A program made the position numbers and the translations under genes. The notes beneath the pieces are model-generated. The model made no database searches and was not told the origin of the DNA. It was given only the letters and a program-made list of their open reading frames with translations. Positions 55,401 to 63,810 of a DNA stretch of 64,000 bases are shown here, in pieces (position 1 is the stretch's first letter; the number at the start of each line of letters is the position of its first letter). Source of the DNA: a virus; the IMG/VR virus record IMGVR_UViG_3300027849_000009. One strand, written 5' to 3'.

Positions 55401-55630
55401 TGGCAGAACGATATCGCGAAGAAACTACTGATTGGGGTGATTACAAGATAAGCAATCACATATATATTACTATGGGTGAGCAATTGTTAGGTTATATACC
55501 CAAAGGCGGTAAAGAGATGCGATTCTCTAAACCGAAGAAGCAATGGTCAGTATCGCGACGAAAGTTTCGTGAACTCACCAAGAAAGAAATAGCGTGGGTA
55601 AAAGAAAATGGTAACATACCGCAAAGTTAG
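55397..55630 (+). CDS. Hypothetical protein
   Basis: EETTDW, NHIYI, SRRKF. Confidence 0.6.
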   Translation: MMAERYREETTDWGDYKISNHIYITMGEQLLGYIPKGGKEMRFSKPKKQWSVSRRKFRELTKKEIAWVKENGNIPQS

Positions 55631-55982
55631 TATATTAGCACTAGCAATATTAATATCTGGATGTAATTTATTACCAGACAACTTCGATAATCAAGAGTTT
55701 GGTTATCTCGCAGAACTTCATGTATCTGCATCCGTAACACCAAGTCCCTGTGATCAAGACGAACTAAAAGAAATACATCGTCTAGCATCCGTTCTCACTA
55801 CATACAGTGAACATACACTAAATGACAATACCACACTAATCTATAGTGAGATTCAAAGTCTCACGGGTGAGTTGTTGGACAGGGAATCACCTAGTAGAAC
55901 CTACTGTAAAATGAAACGAAAGAGTATCCGACAAGTGACTGACACAGCACTATCGGTATTCGGAACGAGGATAAAGAAATGA
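55608..55982 (+). CDS. Lipoprotein
   Basis: Signal peptide with lipobox LISGC; two further Cys. Confidence 0.7.
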   Translation: MVTYRKVSILALAILISGCNLLPDNFDNQEFGYLAELHVSASVTPSPCDQDELKEIHRLASVLTTYSEHTLNDNTTLIYSEIQSLTGELLDRESPSRTYCKMKRKSIRQVTDTALSVFGTRIKK

Positions 55983-56589: not shown

Positions 56590-56929
56590 TACAGGTTGTT
56601 CGTTACTTCCTCAAGCACCTAAAGTTATTCCAGTTGAGATTCGTACTATAGAGGTAAAGATACCTATTGTGCATCCTACTCTGCCTCGTGCAATCGATCT
56701 GAAAGAACCATACTTCTATGTGGTATCAGATAAGAACATGGATACGTTTATCGCAGAGATGGAGAAACTAAATGGTACAGTAGTCTTCACTGCAATGACA
56801 ATTGATGACTATGAGTTGATGGCATATAACATGCAGGAAATAAAACGCTACATAGGACAGTTAAAGGAAGTTGTGGTATACTACCGAACTATTAATGACG
56901 AACCCGAAGAGGTCGTAGAGGAAAAATAA
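56537..56929 (+). CDS. o-spanin (Rz1-like lipoprotein)
   Basis: Lipobox LISTGC, Pro-rich linker, overlap with the i-spanin. Confidence 0.75.
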   Translation: MYLTASKKILLLSAILISTGCSLLPQAPKVIPVEIRTIEVKIPIVHPTLPRAIDLKEPYFYVVSDKNMDTFIAEMEKLNGTVVFTAMTIDDYELMAYNMQEIKRYIGQLKEVVVYYRTINDEPEEVVEEK

Positions 56930-57384
56930 TGTACGATTACAAAGTAAAAATCGTGAGAGTGGTCGATGGCGATACAGTGGATGTTGATATTGACTTAGGT
57001 TTTGGTATCTGGATGCTTAAAGAACGTGTACGTATGATGGGCATCGACACACCTGAATCACGTACTCGCGATAAGGTAGAGAAGAAGTTTGGTCTTGCCG
57101 CTAAGAAACATCTCAAAGAAATGTTAGGTAAGACAGCGATTCTTAGGACTCAGATCGATAGGTCCGGAGAAGACAAGAAAGGTAAGTTCGGTCGTATTCT
57201 AGGGGACTTCGATGTTCAAGTTGAACCATCTATCGGTCAGTATGATACAATGAAGAGTGCTTGCCAGATTATGATTGATGACGGTCATGCAGTATCGTAC
57301 TTCGGTGGTAATAAAGAAGAGAATAAAGCAAAGCATTTAGCGAACCGTGAACGCCTGATTGCCGAAGGTGTTGTCGTTCTATAG
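56929..57384 (+). CDS. Thermonuclease (SNase-like)
   Basis: RVVDGDT, RMMGIDTPE, GKFGRILG. Confidence 0.88.
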   Translation: MYDYKVKIVRVVDGDTVDVDIDLGFGIWMLKERVRMMGIDTPESRTRDKVEKKFGLAAKKHLKEMLGKTAILRTQIDRSGEDKKGKFGRILGDFDVQVEPSIGQYDTMKSACQIMIDDGHAVSYFGGNKEENKAKHLANRERLIAEGVVVL

Positions 57385-58577: not shown

Positions 58578-59540
58578 ATGAGTCATGAATTAGAGATTGT
58601 AAACGGTAAAGCACAAATGGCATATGCAGGACAAGTTCCTTGGCATGGTCTCGGTACTAAAGTATCTACAGATTTGTCTCCGAGAGAGATGATGGTCGAA
58701 GCGGGATTGGATTGGGGTGTGGAGAAACACTCTGCATTGATCAACGTGCGTGGTGAGTTAATTGAGACGGGTCAGGAAGCACTTATCCGTACAGATACCA
58801 ATGCTGTACTAACTAACGTAGGTAAGAACTGGAATCCTGTTCAGAATAGCGAAGCATTCGATTTCTTTGCTGAGTACTGCGCCGCTGGCGATATGGAGAT
58901 GCACACAGCGGGTTCACTAAAGGATGGGCAAATCACTTGGGTTCTTGCTAAAGTAAATGAGTCATTCGATATCCTTGGTGATGATCAAGTAGATTCGTTC
59001 TTGTTACTATCTAACCCACATCAGTATGGCAAAGCAATCAATGTTCGCTTCACTCCTATTCGTGTAGTATGTAACAACACCTTGACCTTCTCACTTAGTG
59101 CGAACTCAAACAATCAAGTAACTATGAATCACCGTTCTAAGTTTAATCCTGATGAAGTTAAAGCACATATGGGAATTGCTCACGACAAGTTTGCTCAGTA
59201 TAAAGAGATGGCGAATTACTTAGGACACAAGCAAGCATCATTCGGTGATTTGATTAACTACTTTAACAACGTGTTCCCAGTTGCTAATGCTGCCGCTCGT
59301 GAAGCGAAATCATACAGTGATTTGTCTCGTACTGCTAAGATAGCGATGGATCAACTTGACACACAACCGGGTGCTGAGTACGGACGCGGATCATGGTGGC
59401 AAGCACTTAATGCAGTGACTTACACAACCGATCACTTGTTGGGTCGCTCTGCTGATACTCGTATGGCGTCTGCATGGTTCGGATCTAATCAAGCGAAGAA
59501 AGTCAAAGCAGTAAACCTCGCAGTTGAGATGGCATCGTAA
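58578..59540 (+). CDS. DUF932 family protein
   Basis: VPWHGLG, PVQNSEAFDFF, TPIRVVCNNTL, WWQALNAVT. Confidence 0.88.
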   Translation: MSHELEIVNGKAQMAYAGQVPWHGLGTKVSTDLSPREMMVEAGLDWGVEKHSALINVRGELIETGQEALIRTDTNAVLTNVGKNWNPVQNSEAFDFFAEYCAAGDMEMHTAGSLKDGQITWVLAKVNESFDILGDDQVDSFLLLSNPHQYGKAINVRFTPIRVVCNNTLTFSLSANSNNQVTMNHRSKFNPDEVKAHMGIAHDKFAQYKEMANYLGHKQASFGDLINYFNNVFPVANAAAREAKSYSDLSRTAKIAMDQLDTQPGAEYGRGSWWQALNAVTYTTDHLLGRSADTRMASAWFGSNQAKKVKAVNLAVEMAS

Positions 59541-59550
59541 TTAACGCCTG

Positions 59551-59606
59551 AAAAACGTCTTTAGTATAAATATTATAATGATATTCATGTACTAAAGGCG
59601 TTGTTT
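59551..59606 (+). promoter_or_regulatory. Late promoter inside an RBS-sequestering hairpin
   Basis: TATAAATA at 59565 in the left arm; arms 59554-59575 and 59579-59602; AAAGG in the right arm; ATG at 59608. Confidence 0.8.
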
Positions 59607-59607
59607 T

Positions 59608-60081
59608 ATGATCGATCCTATATCTGCTGTGGCAGTTGCAACATCCGCATACAAAACAATAACTGCAATGCTTTCTGCTGGACGTGAAGTTGAAGATACT
59701 CTCGGTCAGTTAGGAAAATGGTACGGCGCTATCGCTGACTTCAATGAAGCAAAGCGACAAGCAGAAAATCCCCCTCTATTCAAGAAACTATTCTATTCCT
59801 CAAGTATTGAACAAGAGGCGATGAATATGTTCATTCAAGAACGAAAAATCAAAGCACAAGAAAAAGACCTCCGAGAACTATTGACCTTCTGTTTTCCTGG
59901 TGACGCATACAAAGAATTGACGGATATGCGTAGAAAAATAAGGGATCAGCGAGAGAAAACCCAGTACAAGCAAATTCGCCAGAGACAAGCATTTGTTGCC
60001 AATGCAATCAACTGTATACTGATTGTTGTTTTAAGTGCTTTTACGTATGGTATATTTTCAATGATTATAAATAACATATAG
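59608..60081 (+). CDS. Helical protein with C-terminal TM anchor
   Basis: Coiled-coil body; AINCILIVVLSAFTYGIFSMII. Confidence 0.7.
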   Translation: MIDPISAVAVATSAYKTITAMLSAGREVEDTLGQLGKWYGAIADFNEAKRQAENPPLFKKLFYSSSIEQEAMNMFIQERKIKAQEKDLRELLTFCFPGDAYKELTDMRRKIRDQREKTQYKQIRQRQAFVANAINCILIVVLSAFTYGIFSMIINNI

Positions 60082-60128
60082 ATAAGATAAGATAAACAAT
60101 TGAATTAAATGAATGAAAGGTGGAATAA

Positions 60129-60689
60129 ATGAAACATATAATTTGTGTGATGTTAATGGGAATGCTATGCACCATAGCGAATGCACAAGATGCTCCCATT
60201 GATGATACTATCAGAACAGACTCAGTAACAAACAGTACGGTTGATTCAACATCGAGATCAACTACCACGCTGAACTCTCCTCCTGCTTCTGCAATAACTC
60301 CGACTATCAATACGTCAAACTCTGACTTATGTACGTTCGGTGTTGCGGGTGCAATTCAAACACAGATTCTAGGTATCTCTACTGGCACTCAGGTGACAGA
60401 TGATAACTGTGAACGCCTGAAACTTTCGAAGACTCTGTATGATATGGGTATGAAAGTGGCAGCGGTTTCGACGATGTGTCAAGACGAACGAGTATTCAAC
60501 GCTATGATGATGGCAGGCACTCCGTGTCCCTACGATGGTATGATTGGATCAGAAGCAAAGGCAGCATGGGAAGTTAATGCTGAAGAGAAACCAGATGCTA
60601 AAAAAGAAGAGGAGGGACTGACTGATGGTACTAAGACATTATTGGGCGGCGCTGGCGTTGCTAGTTTGCTCTTGTTACTCCTACTCTAA
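60129..60689 (+). CDS. Exported protein with Cys-bounded beta-hairpin and C-terminal hydrophobic anchor
   Basis: Signal peptide ending ANA|QD; four Cys in the mature part; LLGGAGVASLLLLLL end. Confidence 0.75.
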   Translation: MKHIICVMLMGMLCTIANAQDAPIDDTIRTDSVTNSTVDSTSRSTTTLNSPPASAITPTINTSNSDLCTFGVAGAIQTQILGISTGTQVTDDNCERLKLSKTLYDMGMKVAAVSTMCQDERVFNAMMMAGTPCPYDGMIGSEAKAAWEVNAEEKPDAKKEEEGLTDGTKTLLGGAGVASLLLLLLL

Positions 60690-61515
60690 CGATACAGTTT
60701 ATGGTTCTACGTCGAATGCGGCAGCAAATGGTTACAGATGGGTCATGACAAATGTTCTACCTCAACAGTTAGGATTGACTGTTGGTAATGTCATCTATCA
60801 ATACACTACAGTTAAGAATACTGATGACGATATGGTTGTCAGTGTACAGAATGAGAATGCGCGAGGCGAAGGTTATATCTTTAGATCAGTAGATGATTGG
60901 TCAGGAATACCGGGCAATAGTATAAATAAAGTCGTTCCTGCAGGCAACATAGACATATCATACTGGGGGAATGGTTCGATAGATTGGACAGGCACTGGTT
61001 CTGTTACAGATGCGAAAGTGATATACACGTATCAGTACGACCCATGTTTTGATCCGCAGACTGATCCCGCTTGCCCAGGATGGATAGCGCCAGTTAATTA
61101 CAGTATCGAAGACGCCGAAGCATACGATGCTTTATCTGAAGACTATGTTCAGAATGAACTGGATCGAAAGCAGACTCTCCAAGATGAAGAAGAGGAAGAA
61201 GAAGCGGAACGCAAGGCAAACATTCTAAGAAAGAAAAGAGAGAATGACGAACGACTAGAAGTAATGTTGGGATATGTGAATACATCCCTATTATCTGACG
61301 GTCAACTAATTCAGCATGAGATGCTAAAGGCGACAAACAATCTGTCGGGTGCGTATTATGCAACTATATCAGGTGGTAATTATCCAGAGACTATTAAGTT
61401 GATTGATAAGAAACTGCCGGATAGTAAGAGTGGTGTCAGAACCAATCTTGCGCAACAAGTGCTACACCAACAGATGGTCGACTCACAATATAATAATAAT
61501 AACGGAGAACAATAA
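60625..61515 (+). CDS. Exported protein (beta domain, Cys motif, acidic stalk)
   Basis: Signal peptide; DPCFDPQTDPACPG; EEEEEEAE. Confidence 0.7.
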   Translation: MVLRHYWAALALLVCSCYSYSNDTVYGSTSNAAANGYRWVMTNVLPQQLGLTVGNVIYQYTTVKNTDDDMVVSVQNENARGEGYIFRSVDDWSGIPGNSINKVVPAGNIDISYWGNGSIDWTGTGSVTDAKVIYTYQYDPCFDPQTDPACPGWIAPVNYSIEDAEAYDALSEDYVQNELDRKQTLQDEEEEEEAERKANILRKKRENDERLEVMLGYVNTSLLSDGQLIQHEMLKATNNLSGAYYATISGGNYPETIKLIDKKLPDSKSGVRTNLAQQVLHQQMVDSQYNNNNGEQ

Positions 61516-62009
61516 TGTTCAAAAAATTAATGTTATCGGTAGCAATTCTGAGTGGCAGTGCAATTGCCCAAGAAGTGCCTATTACTGGCAACGTAGAATC
61601 AAAATGTATAGTACAAACTGATACACTCGGAGTATATGGTAACCCGACTCCTAGTCAACTAACTACATCATCTAATAGTGGCGGAGTAACTCCTATTATT
61701 CGTTTCGATGTGATTCAAGCAAGTTTTTATAAAGCACGAATCACTACACCGAGCGGATTCTCAGAAAGTCCTGCGCTAGATGATGTTGTAACATGGACGG
61801 GTGATGTTGCTGTAGGCGAAGTTTCCGATGCTACTATGTCATCTTATAGCACCAGCAAAGTCGAGTACGATAACACAACTGAAATAGATTTGACAGTTGC
61901 GGGCAGTACTTGGTTTAATATTACATCAACAGCAGACTACGGATATGACACAGCACTTCCTGCTGGCACTTATCGTGCTGTTGTAAGCGCGGAATGTATC
62001 GCTCTGTAA
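61515..62009 (+). CDS. Fimbrial/pilin-like (Csu/SCPU-like) exported subunit
   Basis: Signal ending AIA|QE; ITGNVESKCIV; C-terminal LPAGTYRAVVSAEC. Confidence 0.6.
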   Translation: MFKKLMLSVAILSGSAIAQEVPITGNVESKCIVQTDTLGVYGNPTPSQLTTSSNSGGVTPIIRFDVIQASFYKARITTPSGFSESPALDDVVTWTGDVAVGEVSDATMSSYSTSKVEYDNTTEIDLTVAGSTWFNITSTADYGYDTALPAGTYRAVVSAECIAL

Positions 62010-62383
62010 TGCGTTTTTTTGTAATGCTATTATTGATGACTTTAAGCACCTATGTAATAGGTCATCAATGGACTCCAACTTATCCTACGTTGAAGAACTC
62101 TTATGTATCTGGGGTTCTTTCAACTAGGATGGAGTTGTTCAATGCTAGAAAAGAGGTGTTGTATTATCAGATTGGTGTATTTGATACCGACTTCAAAGCA
62201 GTGCCATTTGCTACCTCAGAAAAGATAATAAAGATTGAACACCTTGACCGAAGGACTGTTGACATTTTTATTAGAAATAGAGATAAAAGTAAAGCAGTAT
62301 ATATTTGTTCTAAGTCTAAGTTGTTAGCAAAGGGATCGGCAACAACCTCTATATCTTCAAGGATATGTTCTAAAATTAAATGA
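62009..62383 (+). CDS. PapD-like single-domain periplasmic chaperone candidate
   Basis: Signal peptide; MELFN..YYQIGVFD..VPFA..TVDIFI pattern; two Cys. Confidence 0.5.
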   Translation: MRFFVMLLLMTLSTYVIGHQWTPTYPTLKNSYVSGVLSTRMELFNARKEVLYYQIGVFDTDFKAVPFATSEKIIKIEHLDRRTVDIFIRNRDKSKAVYICSKSKLLAKGSATTSISSRICSKIK

Positions 62384-62393
62384 GTAAATTGTA

Positions 62394-62822
62394 GTGAGAA
62401 AGATTTTTATAATATTGATGTTAGTAAGTACCGGAGCAATAGGTGAATCTAGTTCTTTGAATCTTGCTATACCTCAATCACAACAGAGTTACCAGTCAGA
62501 CAGAATACGTGCAGGGAATATCGAATGTTCTAATGCTATCGGTTCTGCAACTAATGTTGAGTTTGGTGTTGTTGGAATCATTGGAGAGAATGATCCCTAC
62601 GGTTATAATAATAACTCTGGCGCCAGTATGAACACAGGTAGCAATAACGGTATGGTCAAAGATGTCGGTGTGTATGCTAAGATAACGATACCAATCGGTG
62701 GACCAAAAGAAAGAATAAACTGTAATACTTTGTATCAACTAGAACTAGAAAAGACTCGCTTAGAAGTTCGCAAACTGAAAGCAGAAATACAGAGTATGAA
62801 GCAACTAGAATTTGATAACTAA
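62394..62822 (+). CDS. Exported protein with amphipathic beta-hairpin and C-terminal coiled coil
   Basis: Signal peptide; C..NVEFGVVGI..VGVYAKITIPIG..C; LELEKTRLEVRKLKAEI. Confidence 0.65.
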   Translation: MRKIFIILMLVSTGAIGESSSLNLAIPQSQQSYQSDRIRAGNIECSNAIGSATNVEFGVVGIIGENDPYGYNNNSGASMNTGSNNGMVKDVGVYAKITIPIGGPKERINCNTLYQLELEKTRLEVRKLKAEIQSMKQLEFDN

Positions 62823-62836
62823 AGGATCAATGTAAC

Positions 62837-63295
62837 ATGGCAGAAGTAGAGTTTGGTGGAGTAACTTTTAGTGGCGGTAAGATGTTTGTCTTACTCTCTG
62901 CACTTTCTACTTTGGGCGGTGCTACATGGGCAGGTTTCGAGTTCTATTCCGACTACATGGATATGAAAGAGATTGTCCAGAACATCGACACTACCGAGAT
63001 AGCAAACCGAAATGCTCAGATCGAGATTAAACTTGACGAAGCAATCGACTATTCACGTAGTATCAAGAACGACCTTCGTGATGACTTCAATCGTATGGAA
63101 GGTAATGTTGACCGTATCGAAGATAAGAATCGTGATATGGAAGATAAAGTAAAGACGATGATTGATCGCGCCAGCGAGAGATTTGACTCAAAGAGAGATA
63201 GTCTTCAGAACGATACCGAGATTAAAATCAACTCTCTTGAAGATCGAATGAATAAGAAGATACAAACTGTTTTAGATAATCCTCTGGCAGATTAA
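62837..63295 (+). CDS. Membrane-anchored coiled-coil protein
   Basis: TM MFVLLSALSTLGGATWAGF followed by a long heptad region. Confidence 0.7.
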   Translation: MAEVEFGGVTFSGGKMFVLLSALSTLGGATWAGFEFYSDYMDMKEIVQNIDTTEIANRNAQIEIKLDEAIDYSRSIKNDLRDDFNRMEGNVDRIEDKNRDMEDKVKTMIDRASERFDSKRDSLQNDTEIKINSLEDRMNKKIQTVLDNPLAD

Positions 63296-63299
63296 AGTA

Positions 63300-63587
63300 A
63301 TGCAAGTAACAGATAGAGCAAGAGAGAAACTCCAAAACTTCTTAGAACAACGGAGTAAAGGTTGCGGTGTGTTCGTAACAGTTAAAACAACTGGATGCTC
63401 TGGGTATGCATATCATTTAGAATTTGCAAATGACCAAGATAGTCTTATCGAAGTAGACCCCAAATACAAGTATATGTTCGAAGGAGTCATTCTTGATTAT
63501 GTCAAGCAGGGTCTTAATGAAGGATTCGAATTTGACAATCCTAACGAAAAACACAAATGCGGTTGTGGTGAATCTTTTACCGTATAA
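63300..63587 (+). CDS. iscA: A-type Fe-S carrier (IscA/HesB family)
   Basis: TTGCSGYAY, FDNPN, CGCGESF. Confidence 0.92.
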   Translation: MQVTDRAREKLQNFLEQRSKGCGVFVTVKTTGCSGYAYHLEFANDQDSLIEVDPKYKYMFEGVILDYVKQGLNEGFEFDNPNEKHKCGCGESFTV

Positions 63588-63596
63588 AAATAACAC

Positions 63597-63625
63597 TTGA
63601 CATTCCTTATAAATCCTAGTATAAT
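63597..63625 (+). promoter_or_regulatory. Consensus sigma70 promoter with no clear downstream gene
   Basis: TTGACA-17-TATAAT-gcactta. Confidence 0.75.
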
Positions 63626-63744: not shown

Positions 63745-63810
63745 TGAATGATGACTATTCATGAGATAAATGGTAATTAGGTTGACGATGTTGTGATATC
63801 ATGATATAAT
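63745..63810 (+). promoter_or_regulatory. Class B early cassette promoter
   Basis: TGAAT-N7-ATTCA 63745-63761, 20 bp, TTGACG 63782, 17 bp, TATAAT 63805. Confidence 0.85.

Follow-up and report, generated by a model that had tools for sequence, protein, structure and literature searches.

A conserved module of exported phage proteins beside lysis genes, a putative late lysis accessory containing a chaperone-subunit pair

In classical phages, breaking or fusing the outer membrane is the job of an i-spanin/o-spanin pair. We know of no mechanism established for the outer-membrane breach by marine phages of SAR11, Roseobacter and relatives, and canonical spanins and holins are, to our knowledge, mostly unrecognized in the genomes of these phages. 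In PapD, a chaperone of the chaperone-usher pathway, the C-terminus of the bound subunit is anchored by a conserved basic pair, R8/K112. Two other systems are also close to the locus described here. Curli modules with bacterial homologs occur in pelagiphages, are shared by marine Myoviridae and Podoviridae, and are abundant in ocean viromes (Wittmers et al. 2022, PMC9599517). In Enterococcus, the ElrE/ElrD system has a chaperone that primes and polymerizes subunits by donor-strand exchange with no outer-membrane usher, and its chaperone family is unrelated in sequence to the chaperones of the chaperone-usher pathway (bioRxiv 10.64898/2026.10.17.759780).

Gene content and expression signals of the module

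In the window (the whole 64,000-nucleotide stretch of DNA that was analyzed, from an uncultured marine T4-like phage), seven genuine and tightly packed + strand ORFs, here called A to G, occupy positions 59608-63295 (Table 1). A sequence-only reading had taken them for a pilus or fibre module of coupled, envelope-targeted genes without an usher. All seven ORFs that it listed are present, and the coupling that it described can be read directly as TAATG stop/start sequences at 61513-61517 (C/D) and 62007-62011 (D/E). The 65-nt overlap that it reported is also real: the start of C lies inside B, with a strong GAGGAGGG Shine-Dalgarno sequence ahead of it, and the B/C overlap recurs in related loci.

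Table 1. Genes of the module and upstream motif copies; topologies and folds are predictions.
Feature	Position	Strand	Description
TATAAATA	59565..59572	+	T4-type late-promoter motif, 36 nt ahead of the A start
A	59608..60081	+	157 aa; Ala/Ser/Thr-rich N-terminal helix, charged helical middle, C-terminal transmembrane segment
TATAAATA	60066..60073	+	Second copy of the motif, 55 nt ahead of the B start
B	60129..60689	+	Signal peptide, Ser/Thr-rich stretch, four-Cys domain, C-terminal hydrophobic tail
C	60625..61515	+	Signal peptide, beta-rich N-terminal domain, acidic helical linker, conserved C-terminal domain
D	61515..62009	+	Exported Ig-like beta-sandwich subunit
E	62009..62383	+	Exported single-domain PapD_N/MSP-fold protein
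F	62394..62822	+	GTG start, signal peptide, two amphipathic strands, then a C-terminal coiled-coil-like helix
G	62837..63295	+	N-terminal membrane anchor, coiled-coil-like helix of about 110 aa, C-terminal motif

The export proposed for five of the genes agrees with the hydrophobic N-termini and small-x-small sites of B, C, D, E, and F. These signal-like N-termini are kept in 33-36 diverse homologs of each protein, and the signal peptides are predicted from sequence and conservation. The invariant Cys residues of each mature exported protein are even in number, as the idea of paired Cys would have it. A and G, proposed as membrane-anchored coiled coils, have their anchor segments at the C-terminus and N-terminus, respectively.

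The TATAAATA motif, a putative promoter, occurs 10 times in the window, always on the + strand, and several copies precede structural genes such as that of the tail sheath. Of 44 distinct upstream regions from related loci, 16 contain the motif in the last 200 nt ahead of B (expected, 0.025 per 200 nt), with its start mostly 30-50 nt from the gene. Among the closest relatives, it lies just 5' of the adjoining lysozyme gene in L007, between this gene and B in L005, and inside the 1.5 kb scanned upstream of the lysozyme gene in the others checked. In about ten related loci, a perfect sigma-70 promoter replaces the late motif ahead of B; thus, the timing of the module is not uniform.

Predicted folds and architectures of the proteins

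None of the proteins A to G belongs to a named family in Pfam, PHROGs, or NCBIfam. E has a predicted PapD-like Ig fold corresponding to domain 1 of the chaperone-usher chaperones. Its mature chain of ~105 aa opens with an invariant His and is closed, in 34/34 homologs, by the G1-equivalent strand; C100 and C120 make up its Cys pair, and its final strand, S-R-I-C-S-K-I-K, is conserved. The second, C-terminal Ig domain of the subunit-binding cleft is absent from E and from the 34 homologs covered. The earlier proposal that E is a chaperone holds for the fold, but with only one of the two domains and no PapD_N sequence match: neither E nor any of the 34 family members matches PF00345 at E values up to 10, and an ESM feature search gave a lead only (0.84). 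K122 of E (94% conserved) falls roughly at the place of PapD K112 when the aligned ranges, 18-124 and 1-114, are simply offset against each other. No conserved basic residue was found at the R8 position of E; R47 is invariant.

D begins with a conserved 12-residue N-terminal extension of alternating pattern (V21-I23-G25-V27-S29), carries a C31-C161 pair, and has a fixed C-terminus, ...AECIA-x. Its designation as a pilin was borne out in part. The predicted Ig-like beta-sandwich finds its best Foldseek matches among chaperone-usher pilins (E 7e-4), yet these are generic by Z, so that the modeled likeness is weak, and no sequence match to PF05229 (SCPU) or PapD_N was obtained for D or E.

Among the other exported proteins, B is encoded by the core gene of the module. 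Its four-Cys domain (C68/C94/C117/C133) is highly conserved, with 57 invariant columns in the B alignment; C68 and C94 flank a Gly-rich hairpin-like stretch, and C117 and C133 lie in helices. B corresponds to phrog_20531 and has more than 8000 metagenome protein clusters, all unnamed. C has one C-x-DP-x5-CPGY disulfide motif (C141/C150) and ends in ...LHxxMVxSQY; its C-terminal domain shares homology with the one found in "long C" proteins of 460-710 aa (hhalign probability 95%, E 3e-8). The long forms belong to a reduced version of the module and contain several tandem copies of the CPGY motif. In F (phrog_37374, function not named there), the amphipathic strands at residues 53-63 and 90-102 are conserved, bracketed by invariant C45/C110, and separated by a hypervariable loop of 13-30 residues.

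The anchor of A (phrog_32327, likewise with no function named) is a strong hydrophobic segment (KD 2.44). That of G is mild, with no 19-mer flagged at KD 1.6, and is conserved. G ends in an invariant LDNPLA(D/N) and forms about 4000 clusters; its family matches are weak and limited to generic coiled-coil families. Homologs with the same build and NPLA end are HTVC115P gp49 (E 5e-37), HTVC023P gp48, and Mosig_00200. This architecture would be that of an i-spanin.

D and E resemble components of the chaperone-usher pathway in being Sec-exported, disulfide-bonded, and Ig-like, with an N-terminal extension on D. The module differs in lacking an usher, a second chaperone domain, and an evident R8 equivalent, in encoding four further exported or membrane proteins that the pathway does not have, and in being carried by lytic phages beside lysis genes. 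Here, an usher was defined as an outer-membrane protein of about 800 aa encoded beside chaperone and subunits. As had been claimed, the cluster contains no usher-sized ORF: none exceeds 320 aa at 57-64 kb, and the ORF maps inspected for related loci show no usher either. Like the pelagiphage curli set (PMC9599517), the module is a multigene, Sec-exported set with no ATPase, occurs in marine Myoviridae as well as Podoviridae, is abundant in ocean viromes, and would give the host envelope a function it otherwise lacks, but its genes are different. No Pfam match to CsgG, CsgF, or the curlin repeat was found for A to G at E values up to 1. The mechanism of ElrE/ElrD is the same as that proposed for E and D; however, it belongs to a Gram-positive, non-phage system in which the subunits have the WxL fold, the chaperone is a DUF916 protein anchored in the membrane, and anchoring is by sortase.

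These features bear on a fibre built without an usher, in which E as chaperone would let D polymerize through donor-strand exchange, F and/or B would form a small outer-membrane pore, and C would be the tip, giving the infected cell a surface structure for aggregation, attachment, or exclusion. The PapD_N fold of E and the pilin matches of D point this way, as do the alternating N-terminal extension, invariant Gly, and fixed C-terminus of D, all as in donor-strand subunits, and the strand pair and hypervariable loop of F, as expected of a surface-exposed membrane hairpin. Precedents are the type VIII (curli) fibre secretion genes of pelagiphages (PMC9599517) and the usher-free, chaperone-guided donor-strand pilus of Enterococcus (bioRxiv 10.64898/2026.10.17.759780). 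Nevertheless, neither an usher nor another recognizable pore is present, and late expression beside an endolysin would give a surface fibre little time to be of use. Moreover, D, E, and F are missing from the widespread reduced form, so that a fibre cannot be the core function of the module. We consider this explanation improbable.

Far less probable still is a role in the virion or its assembly, for example in envelope penetration, with signal-like N-termini that stay uncleaved. Structural genes likewise have late-promoter motifs, and the B and long-C genes of HTVC023P come after the capsid gene region. Against this stand the five conserved Sec-type signal peptides with their small-x-small sites, the invariant Cys pairs typical of periplasmic disulfides, the periplasmic chaperone fold of E, and, in the window, the large distance of the module from the structural block at 1-25 kb.

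Distribution and lysis-gene neighborhood

The module or its reduced form was found in 101 uncultured viral loci. The order B to G is the same in about 60 IMG/VR loci, at identities as low as 44%, and even a rearranged variant (L072) keeps all six genes; strict co-occurrence, on which the idea of a functional module depended, is seen in related phage loci. The reduced form, without D, E, and F, is widespread. A, in contrast, is a variable accessory and not the fixed first gene that it had been taken for: its homologs occur in only 20 of the 101 loci, in the F/G interval, in the interval between long C and G, or downstream on the opposite strand. Cultured carriers are the pelagiphages HTVC023P, HTVC115P, and Mosig and the roseophages CRP-207 and CRP-810, all of which have B homologs, as does Ralstonia phage RSP15. 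Zero matches to C or D were obtained in 50,697 GenBank phages. Among 185,579 species genomes scanned, the block appeared only on metagenome-bin contigs of scattered taxa, which are most likely misbinned phage DNA; the curli set, by comparison, has bacterial homologs.

Among the 20 loci with a recognized endolysin, 19 have its gene no more than 1.5 kb from the module and 10 have it within 20 nt; the 20 loci are the ones matched by endolysin seeds spanning few families, and they represent roughly 8-10 arrangements rather than 20 independent lineages. A PF00959 lysozyme gene is immediately 5' of B in the T4-like loci closest to the window (L001-L007; also L102/L103, with G 96% identical), and MW202481 also has a PF00959 lysozyme. 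The other enzymes are GH19 (L078, L090, and L091), GH108 with PG_binding_3 (L092), and Peptidase_M15_3 in HTVC023P, where the G-like gp48 directly precedes the M15 gene. These four families are spread across myovirus-, podovirus-, and TerS-type backgrounds. No endolysin was detected in the 64 kb of the window, in which A stands where the closest relatives have the lysozyme. Small membrane proteins in holin-like positions include an EF-hand-like two-TM family (41 loci) and tail-anchored proteins of 70-78 aa (26 loci). G is followed directly by the small terminase gene in 28 loci, and the place before this gene is the classical site of lysis cassettes. The module thus resembles such cassettes in its endolysin and small-membrane-protein neighbors, its position before the terminase gene, and its late motifs.

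The likeness of G to the two-component spanins (lambda Rz/Rz1 and T4 PseT.3/PseT.2) would lie in the N-terminal anchor, the predicted periplasmic coiled coil, and the conserved C-terminal motif for contact. The module differs from them in its five extra exported proteins, in having no sequence similarity to Rz families, and in lacking an o-spanin lipoprotein. In the window, no Rz1-type gene is embedded in or overlaps G, and no lipobox ORF lies in or next to it, the sole candidate (55608-55982) being 4 kb upstream; the coding strand of HTVC023P has none in its first 50 kb, and most cassettes have none beside them.

Endolysin adjacency is guilt by association, and exclusion genes and other morons likewise adjoin lysis genes. 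The module might instead act as a periplasmic guard that blocks superinfection, masks receptors on the dying cell and its debris to spare progeny phages, or senses superinfection and adjusts lysis timing in the manner of T4 RI/T lysis inhibition. All parts of the module are predicted to be periplasmic or in the inner membrane, the compartments in which T4 Imm, Sp, and RI act, and lysis regulators are also found beside holin and endolysin genes. In L072, D and E have diverged faster than B, F, and G (HMM E values of 1e-14 for D versus 3e-79 for B and 3e-47 for F), as would suit contact with variable host or phage surfaces. On the other hand, T4-type exclusion genes are early and the motifs of the module are late, six to seven conserved proteins would be a large set for exclusion, and no similarity to Imm, Sp, RI, Cor, or Llp was found. 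Such a function seems unlikely, if less so than a surface fibre.

A putative periplasm-spanning lysis accessory

We favor, at a probability of roughly 40%, the reading of the module as a late, periplasm-spanning lysis accessory containing a chaperone-subunit pair. Since endolysins and candidate holins adjoin the module and putative late promoters precede it, lysis or late envelope remodeling is a better fit than an aggregation or attachment fibre. The original pilus proposal is only partly supported: its gene set, export, folds, and lack of an usher stand, but the genomic context favors lysis.

The module would be phage-specific and functionally part of the lysis cassette, transcribed late, with products directed to the periplasm and inner membrane. 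G would be held in the inner membrane by its N-terminal anchor in an i-spanin-like manner and B by its C-terminal tail, with A as a tail-anchored accessory; C, D, E, and F would be soluble periplasmic or outer-membrane-directed proteins locked by disulfides. E, a putative one-domain relative of the pilus chaperones, may hold D by strand complementation, and D would then be built into a short periplasmic assembly that, with C and F, might connect the outer membrane with the inner-membrane anchors. After the adjoining endolysin has cut the wall, this trans-envelope assembly could help break or fuse the outer membrane. Compared with the spanins that we know of, one made of six proteins would be much more complex.

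It is conceivable, though doubtful, that many marine phages of the highest abundance (pelagiphages, roseophages, and T4-like myoviruses of heterotrophs) lack Rz/Rz1-type spanins and instead open the outer membrane with such a multi-protein trans-envelope machine. Its core would be B, C, and G, and the expanded form would add the borrowed half-chaperone E, the Ig-like D by donor-strand chemistry, and F as an outer-membrane-engaging hairpin protein.

The module is extremely common, occurs in several unrelated phage types, and sits at lysis-gene sites; because cultured carriers exist, its role is directly testable. If it builds some other periplasmic structure, it would still be a new usher-less chaperone-subunit system. 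If it provides the missing last step of lysis, it would represent a new class of lysis machinery governing ocean carbon release and the first viral use of the pilus-chaperone fold.

Organization and transcription of the module

The window, with a GC content of about 40%, belongs to an uncultured marine myovirus of the T4-like type. Its DNA polymerase, helicases, tail fibre, sheath, portal and major head protein are of T4 type, and the last of these shares 68% identity with that of Phage C48C1 and approximately 59% with those of Pelagibacter phage HTVC008M and Methylophilales phage Melnitz. Seven plus-strand ORFs (named A to G) occupy positions 59608-63295, F starting with GTG. The sequence-only reading had described them as a cluster of coupled, envelope-targeted genes, and this anatomy was found to be correct with regard to ORFs, junctions and export features. 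TAATG junctions are present at C/D and D/E, and B and C overlap by 65 nt, with a strong Shine-Dalgarno sequence for C lying within B. An N-terminal hydrophobic segment followed by a small-x-small site was observed in B, C, D, E and F and is retained in 33 to 36 diverse homologs of each, and the number of invariant Cys residues is even in every mature exported protein. Transmembrane segments are C-terminal in A and N-terminal in G (milder but conserved), and B has a C-terminal hydrophobic tail. None of the seven proteins matched a named family in Pfam, NCBIfam or PHROGs, and when PDB sequences were searched with profiles of B, C, D, E and F, no hit had an E-value below 0.06.

Late-promoter motifs (TATAAATA) precede both A and B. 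A total of 10 copies were found in the window, all on the plus strand (4.6 expected over both strands together), several of them directly 5' of structural genes; this distribution fits T4-type late promoters. Among 44 distinct related regions upstream of B, 16 contain the motif within 200 nt (0.025 expected), mostly 30-50 nt before the gene, and approximately ten others have a perfect TTGACA-17-TATAAT promoter and no late motif there. That the products are virion components is considered very improbable. No strong internal promoter or terminator was detected in the block. Two near-perfect sigma-70 promoters follow the IscA-like gene, which starts 4 nt after G, and mark where the transcription unit ends. 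This IscA/Fe-S biosynthesis-like gene is missing from that position in all related loci. Genes for a DUF932 protein and, farther upstream, an SNase-like protein precede the module; they are again found near it in some related loci (L010, L048 and L072), in positions that are not fixed.

Coordinates of the module genes and associated features (L-numbers denote related viral loci compared with the window)
Feature	Location	Strand	Remark
Late-promoter motif	window, 16068	+	before sheath gene
Lipobox ORF	window, 55608-55982	+	124 aa; ...LAILISGC/N...
SNase-like ORF	window, 56929-57384	+
DUF932 protein gene	window, 58578-59540	+	PF06067, E 7e-39
Late-promoter motif	36 nt before A	+	motif match
A	window, starts at 59608	+
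Late-promoter motif	55 nt before B	+	motif match
B	window, starts at 60129	+
C	window, starts at 60625	+
D	window, starts at 61515	+
E	window, starts at 62009	+
Codon for His19 of E	window, 62063-62065	+	invariant
F	window, starts at 62394	+
G	window, starts at 62837	+
IscA-like gene	window, 63300-63587	+	PF01521, E 2e-11
Sigma-70 promoters	window, 63597-63625 and 63782-63810		near-perfect
Lipoprotein-signal ORF	L097:3615-3875	+	86 aa; ...STLLSAC/G...
CRP-810 gp51	L097:5219-5641		G homolog
CRP-207 gp73	L101:3292-3873		G homolog
Long C-like proteins	L091:8531-10672, L087:8348-10453, L092:8413-10314, L056:4282-6294		tandem repeats
EF-hand-like two-TM family (examples)	L101:3870-4226, L090:5222-5569, L027:8831-9157		108-147 aa

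Distribution and reduced form

Back-translated C and D queries retrieved 66 loci from IMG/VR, with identity down to about 44%. The genes B to G co-occur in these loci and B-C-D-E-F-G are collinear in nearly all of them, which upholds the proposal that they belong together; the divergent variant L072 has all six in the order B, C, G, D, E, F. Metagenome clusters at 90% identity number more than 8000 for B and about 4000 for G, all effectively unnamed. Searched by tblastn, 50,697 GenBank phage records contained no match to C or D, and no paper describing the module was found in the literature. When one genome per prokaryotic species was scanned, every contig with the module came from a metagenome bin, and the taxa were scattered (Melainabacteria, Aquiluna, Opitutales, Rhodobacteraceae, Bacteroides and others); we read these contigs as phage DNA that was binned wrongly. 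The scan brought up neither an isolate genome with the module nor a bacterial operon that includes an usher. Homologs of A occur in 20 of the 101 loci with the module or its reduced form, located between F and G, after long C, or downstream on the opposite strand, and A is thus a non-fixed member.

HMMs of the six families revealed a second architecture, in which D, E and F are missing and B and G are accompanied by a long C-like protein of 460-710 aa and by small membrane proteins. The Pelagibacter phages HTVC115P (gp54, gp53, gp49), HTVC023P (gp45, gp46, gp48) and Mosig have this form; in Roseobacter phages CRP-207 and CRP-810, which have B and G, the position of C is occupied by a gene that is shorter and unrelated. 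C and long C proteins have a common C-terminal domain (hhalign probability 95%). One C-x-x-P-x5-CPGY motif is found in C and several tandem copies in the long C proteins, whose repeat unit of about 20 aa has the form QQC-x-x-NPLY-x3-CPGY-x-x-AY and presumably builds a disulfide-stapled rod of variable length. The long C-like proteins matched no Pfam family and showed no relation to D by hhalign. Since the reduced form keeps B, G and the C-terminal domain of C, these constitute the core of the module, and D-E-F is an add-on.

Predicted folds of D and E and the fibre question

The sequence-only reading had taken D as a pilin and E as its chaperone in an usher-less pilus. The role of E is borne out at the level of the predicted fold, which is chaperone-like. 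Its end coincides with the end of chaperone domain 1, the last strand (S-R-I-C-S-K-I-K) is nearly invariant, and K122 lies, by a simple offset of aligned ranges, roughly at the position of the subunit-anchoring K112 of PapD. However, compared with the chaperones of chaperone-usher pili, E has no second domain, no evident equivalent of R8 and no PF00345 sequence signal. In addition, mature E begins with the invariant His19 followed by an almost invariant x-x-T-P-T-Y-P, a feature that those chaperones do not have. A copper-binding histidine brace is unlikely, as only this single His is invariant.

For D, the claim holds in part. The predicted structure (pLDDT 89.2) is a beta-sandwich and pilins (CfaB, PapG pilin domain, FimF/G, CsuA/B) top the Foldseek list, but the match is weak (E 6.7e-4, TM 0.37-0.44) and the pilin family SCPU (PF05229) was not found by Pfam. 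Residues 19-30, with an alternating V-I-G-V-S, are highly conserved yet outside any strand; G25, S29, K30 and C31 are invariant and the C-terminus is fixed at ...AECIA-x. Language-model feature searches, which provide leads only, linked D to an SCPU cluster (0.94) and E to PapD_N clusters (0.84); Pfam scans of every member of both alignments returned neither SCPU nor PapD_N. The D profile recovered a tight family of 109 among 1.8 billion representatives, and seven of its matches, including the four distant full-length ones, had no real Pfam match (one at chance level, E 0.056). The predicted structure of D is therefore compatible, and only compatible, with a donor-strand subunit.

Known systems offer partial parallels. 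For fibre secretion encoded by phages, the nearest precedent is provided by the curli (type VIII) modules of pelagiphages (PMC9599517), but they consist of different genes, and a curli/T8SS identity of the module was rejected by Pfam. An usher-less, chaperone-guided donor-strand pilus has recently been reported in Enterococcus (bioRxiv 10.64898/2026.10.17.759780). The evidence does not show the pilus, pore or surface structure that had been envisaged, and the core exists without D, E and F; a fibre displayed by the module, in which the chaperone-like fold of E and the weak pilin likeness of D would find a place, is quite unlikely.

Lysis-gene neighborhood and proposed function

The neighboring genes gave the decisive clue. 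In one contig, which encodes a G 96% identical to that of the window, a PF00959 lysozyme gene ends 26 nt before B, and such a gene also directly precedes B in L001-L007. In L007, TATAAATA is located just 5' of the lysozyme gene, and in L005 between lysozyme and B; the remaining close relatives that were examined have a copy somewhere in the 1.5 kb of scanned sequence that leads up to the lysozyme gene. Elsewhere the module adjoins endolysins of the GH19 (L078, L090, L091), GH108 with PG_binding_3 (L092) and Peptidase_M15_3 (HTVC023P) types; in a complete podovirus genome (MW202481) it lies beside a PF00959 lysozyme. An endolysin was recognizable with the search seeds in 20 of the 101 loci, in 19 cases no more than 1.5 kb from the module; the 20 loci represent perhaps 8-10 independent arrangements, CRP-810 and CRP-207 being left out of the count. 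The 64 kb of the window contain no recognizable endolysin, and A stands in the place of the lysozyme. Such adjacency alone does not prove the function of the module.

Small membrane proteins occupy holin-like positions, namely an EF-hand-like two-TM family (41 of 101 loci; missing from the window) and tail-anchored proteins of 70-78 aa (26 of 101). The former combines a DxDGDG motif (Pfam EF-hand_5, E 3e-4, below the cut-off) with two hydrophobic segments and, because it is often beside the endolysin, is a candidate holin. A family of 158-165-aa membrane proteins was considered as a GTA-type three-TM holin, a guess that Pfam did not confirm. The small terminase gene directly follows G in 28 loci.

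G-like proteins have in common an anchor at the N-terminus, an extended helical region and, at the C-terminus, the motif (L)DNPLA, which is invariant. CRP-810 gp51 and CRP-207 gp73, wrongly labeled 'lysozyme' or 'putative lysozyme' without containing a lysozyme domain, have the N-terminal anchor, a coiled coil and a C-terminal NPL motif. The annotations 'OmpA family' (CRP-810 gp53) and 'TonB' (MW202481) had no Pfam support either. A lipobox scan for o-spanins, the outer-membrane lipoprotein partners of phage lysis, gave no candidate beside G in the window, nor among the coding-strand ORFs in the first 50 kb of HTVC023P. The sole lipobox candidate of the window is situated among the early genes, 4 kb before the module, and its product could be o-spanin-like or a lipoprotein that acts in exclusion. 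In CRP-810 only, a possible o-spanin-like partner is encoded by an unannotated ORF, which carries a lipoprotein signal and overlaps the 5' end of the B-like gene.

With the same endolysin neighborhood and exported products, the module might instead serve as a periplasmic guard or lysis-timing sensor, which seems rather unlikely. The readings are not mutually exclusive in mechanics, and the remaining probability goes to functions that we have not thought of. Our main reading, to which we give a probability of roughly 40%, is that the module is a late, periplasm-spanning part of the lysis cassette. G would form the inner-membrane arm, and a D assembly chaperoned by E, together with C and F, the outer arm, by which the module would carry out, or assist, the outer-membrane step of lysis.
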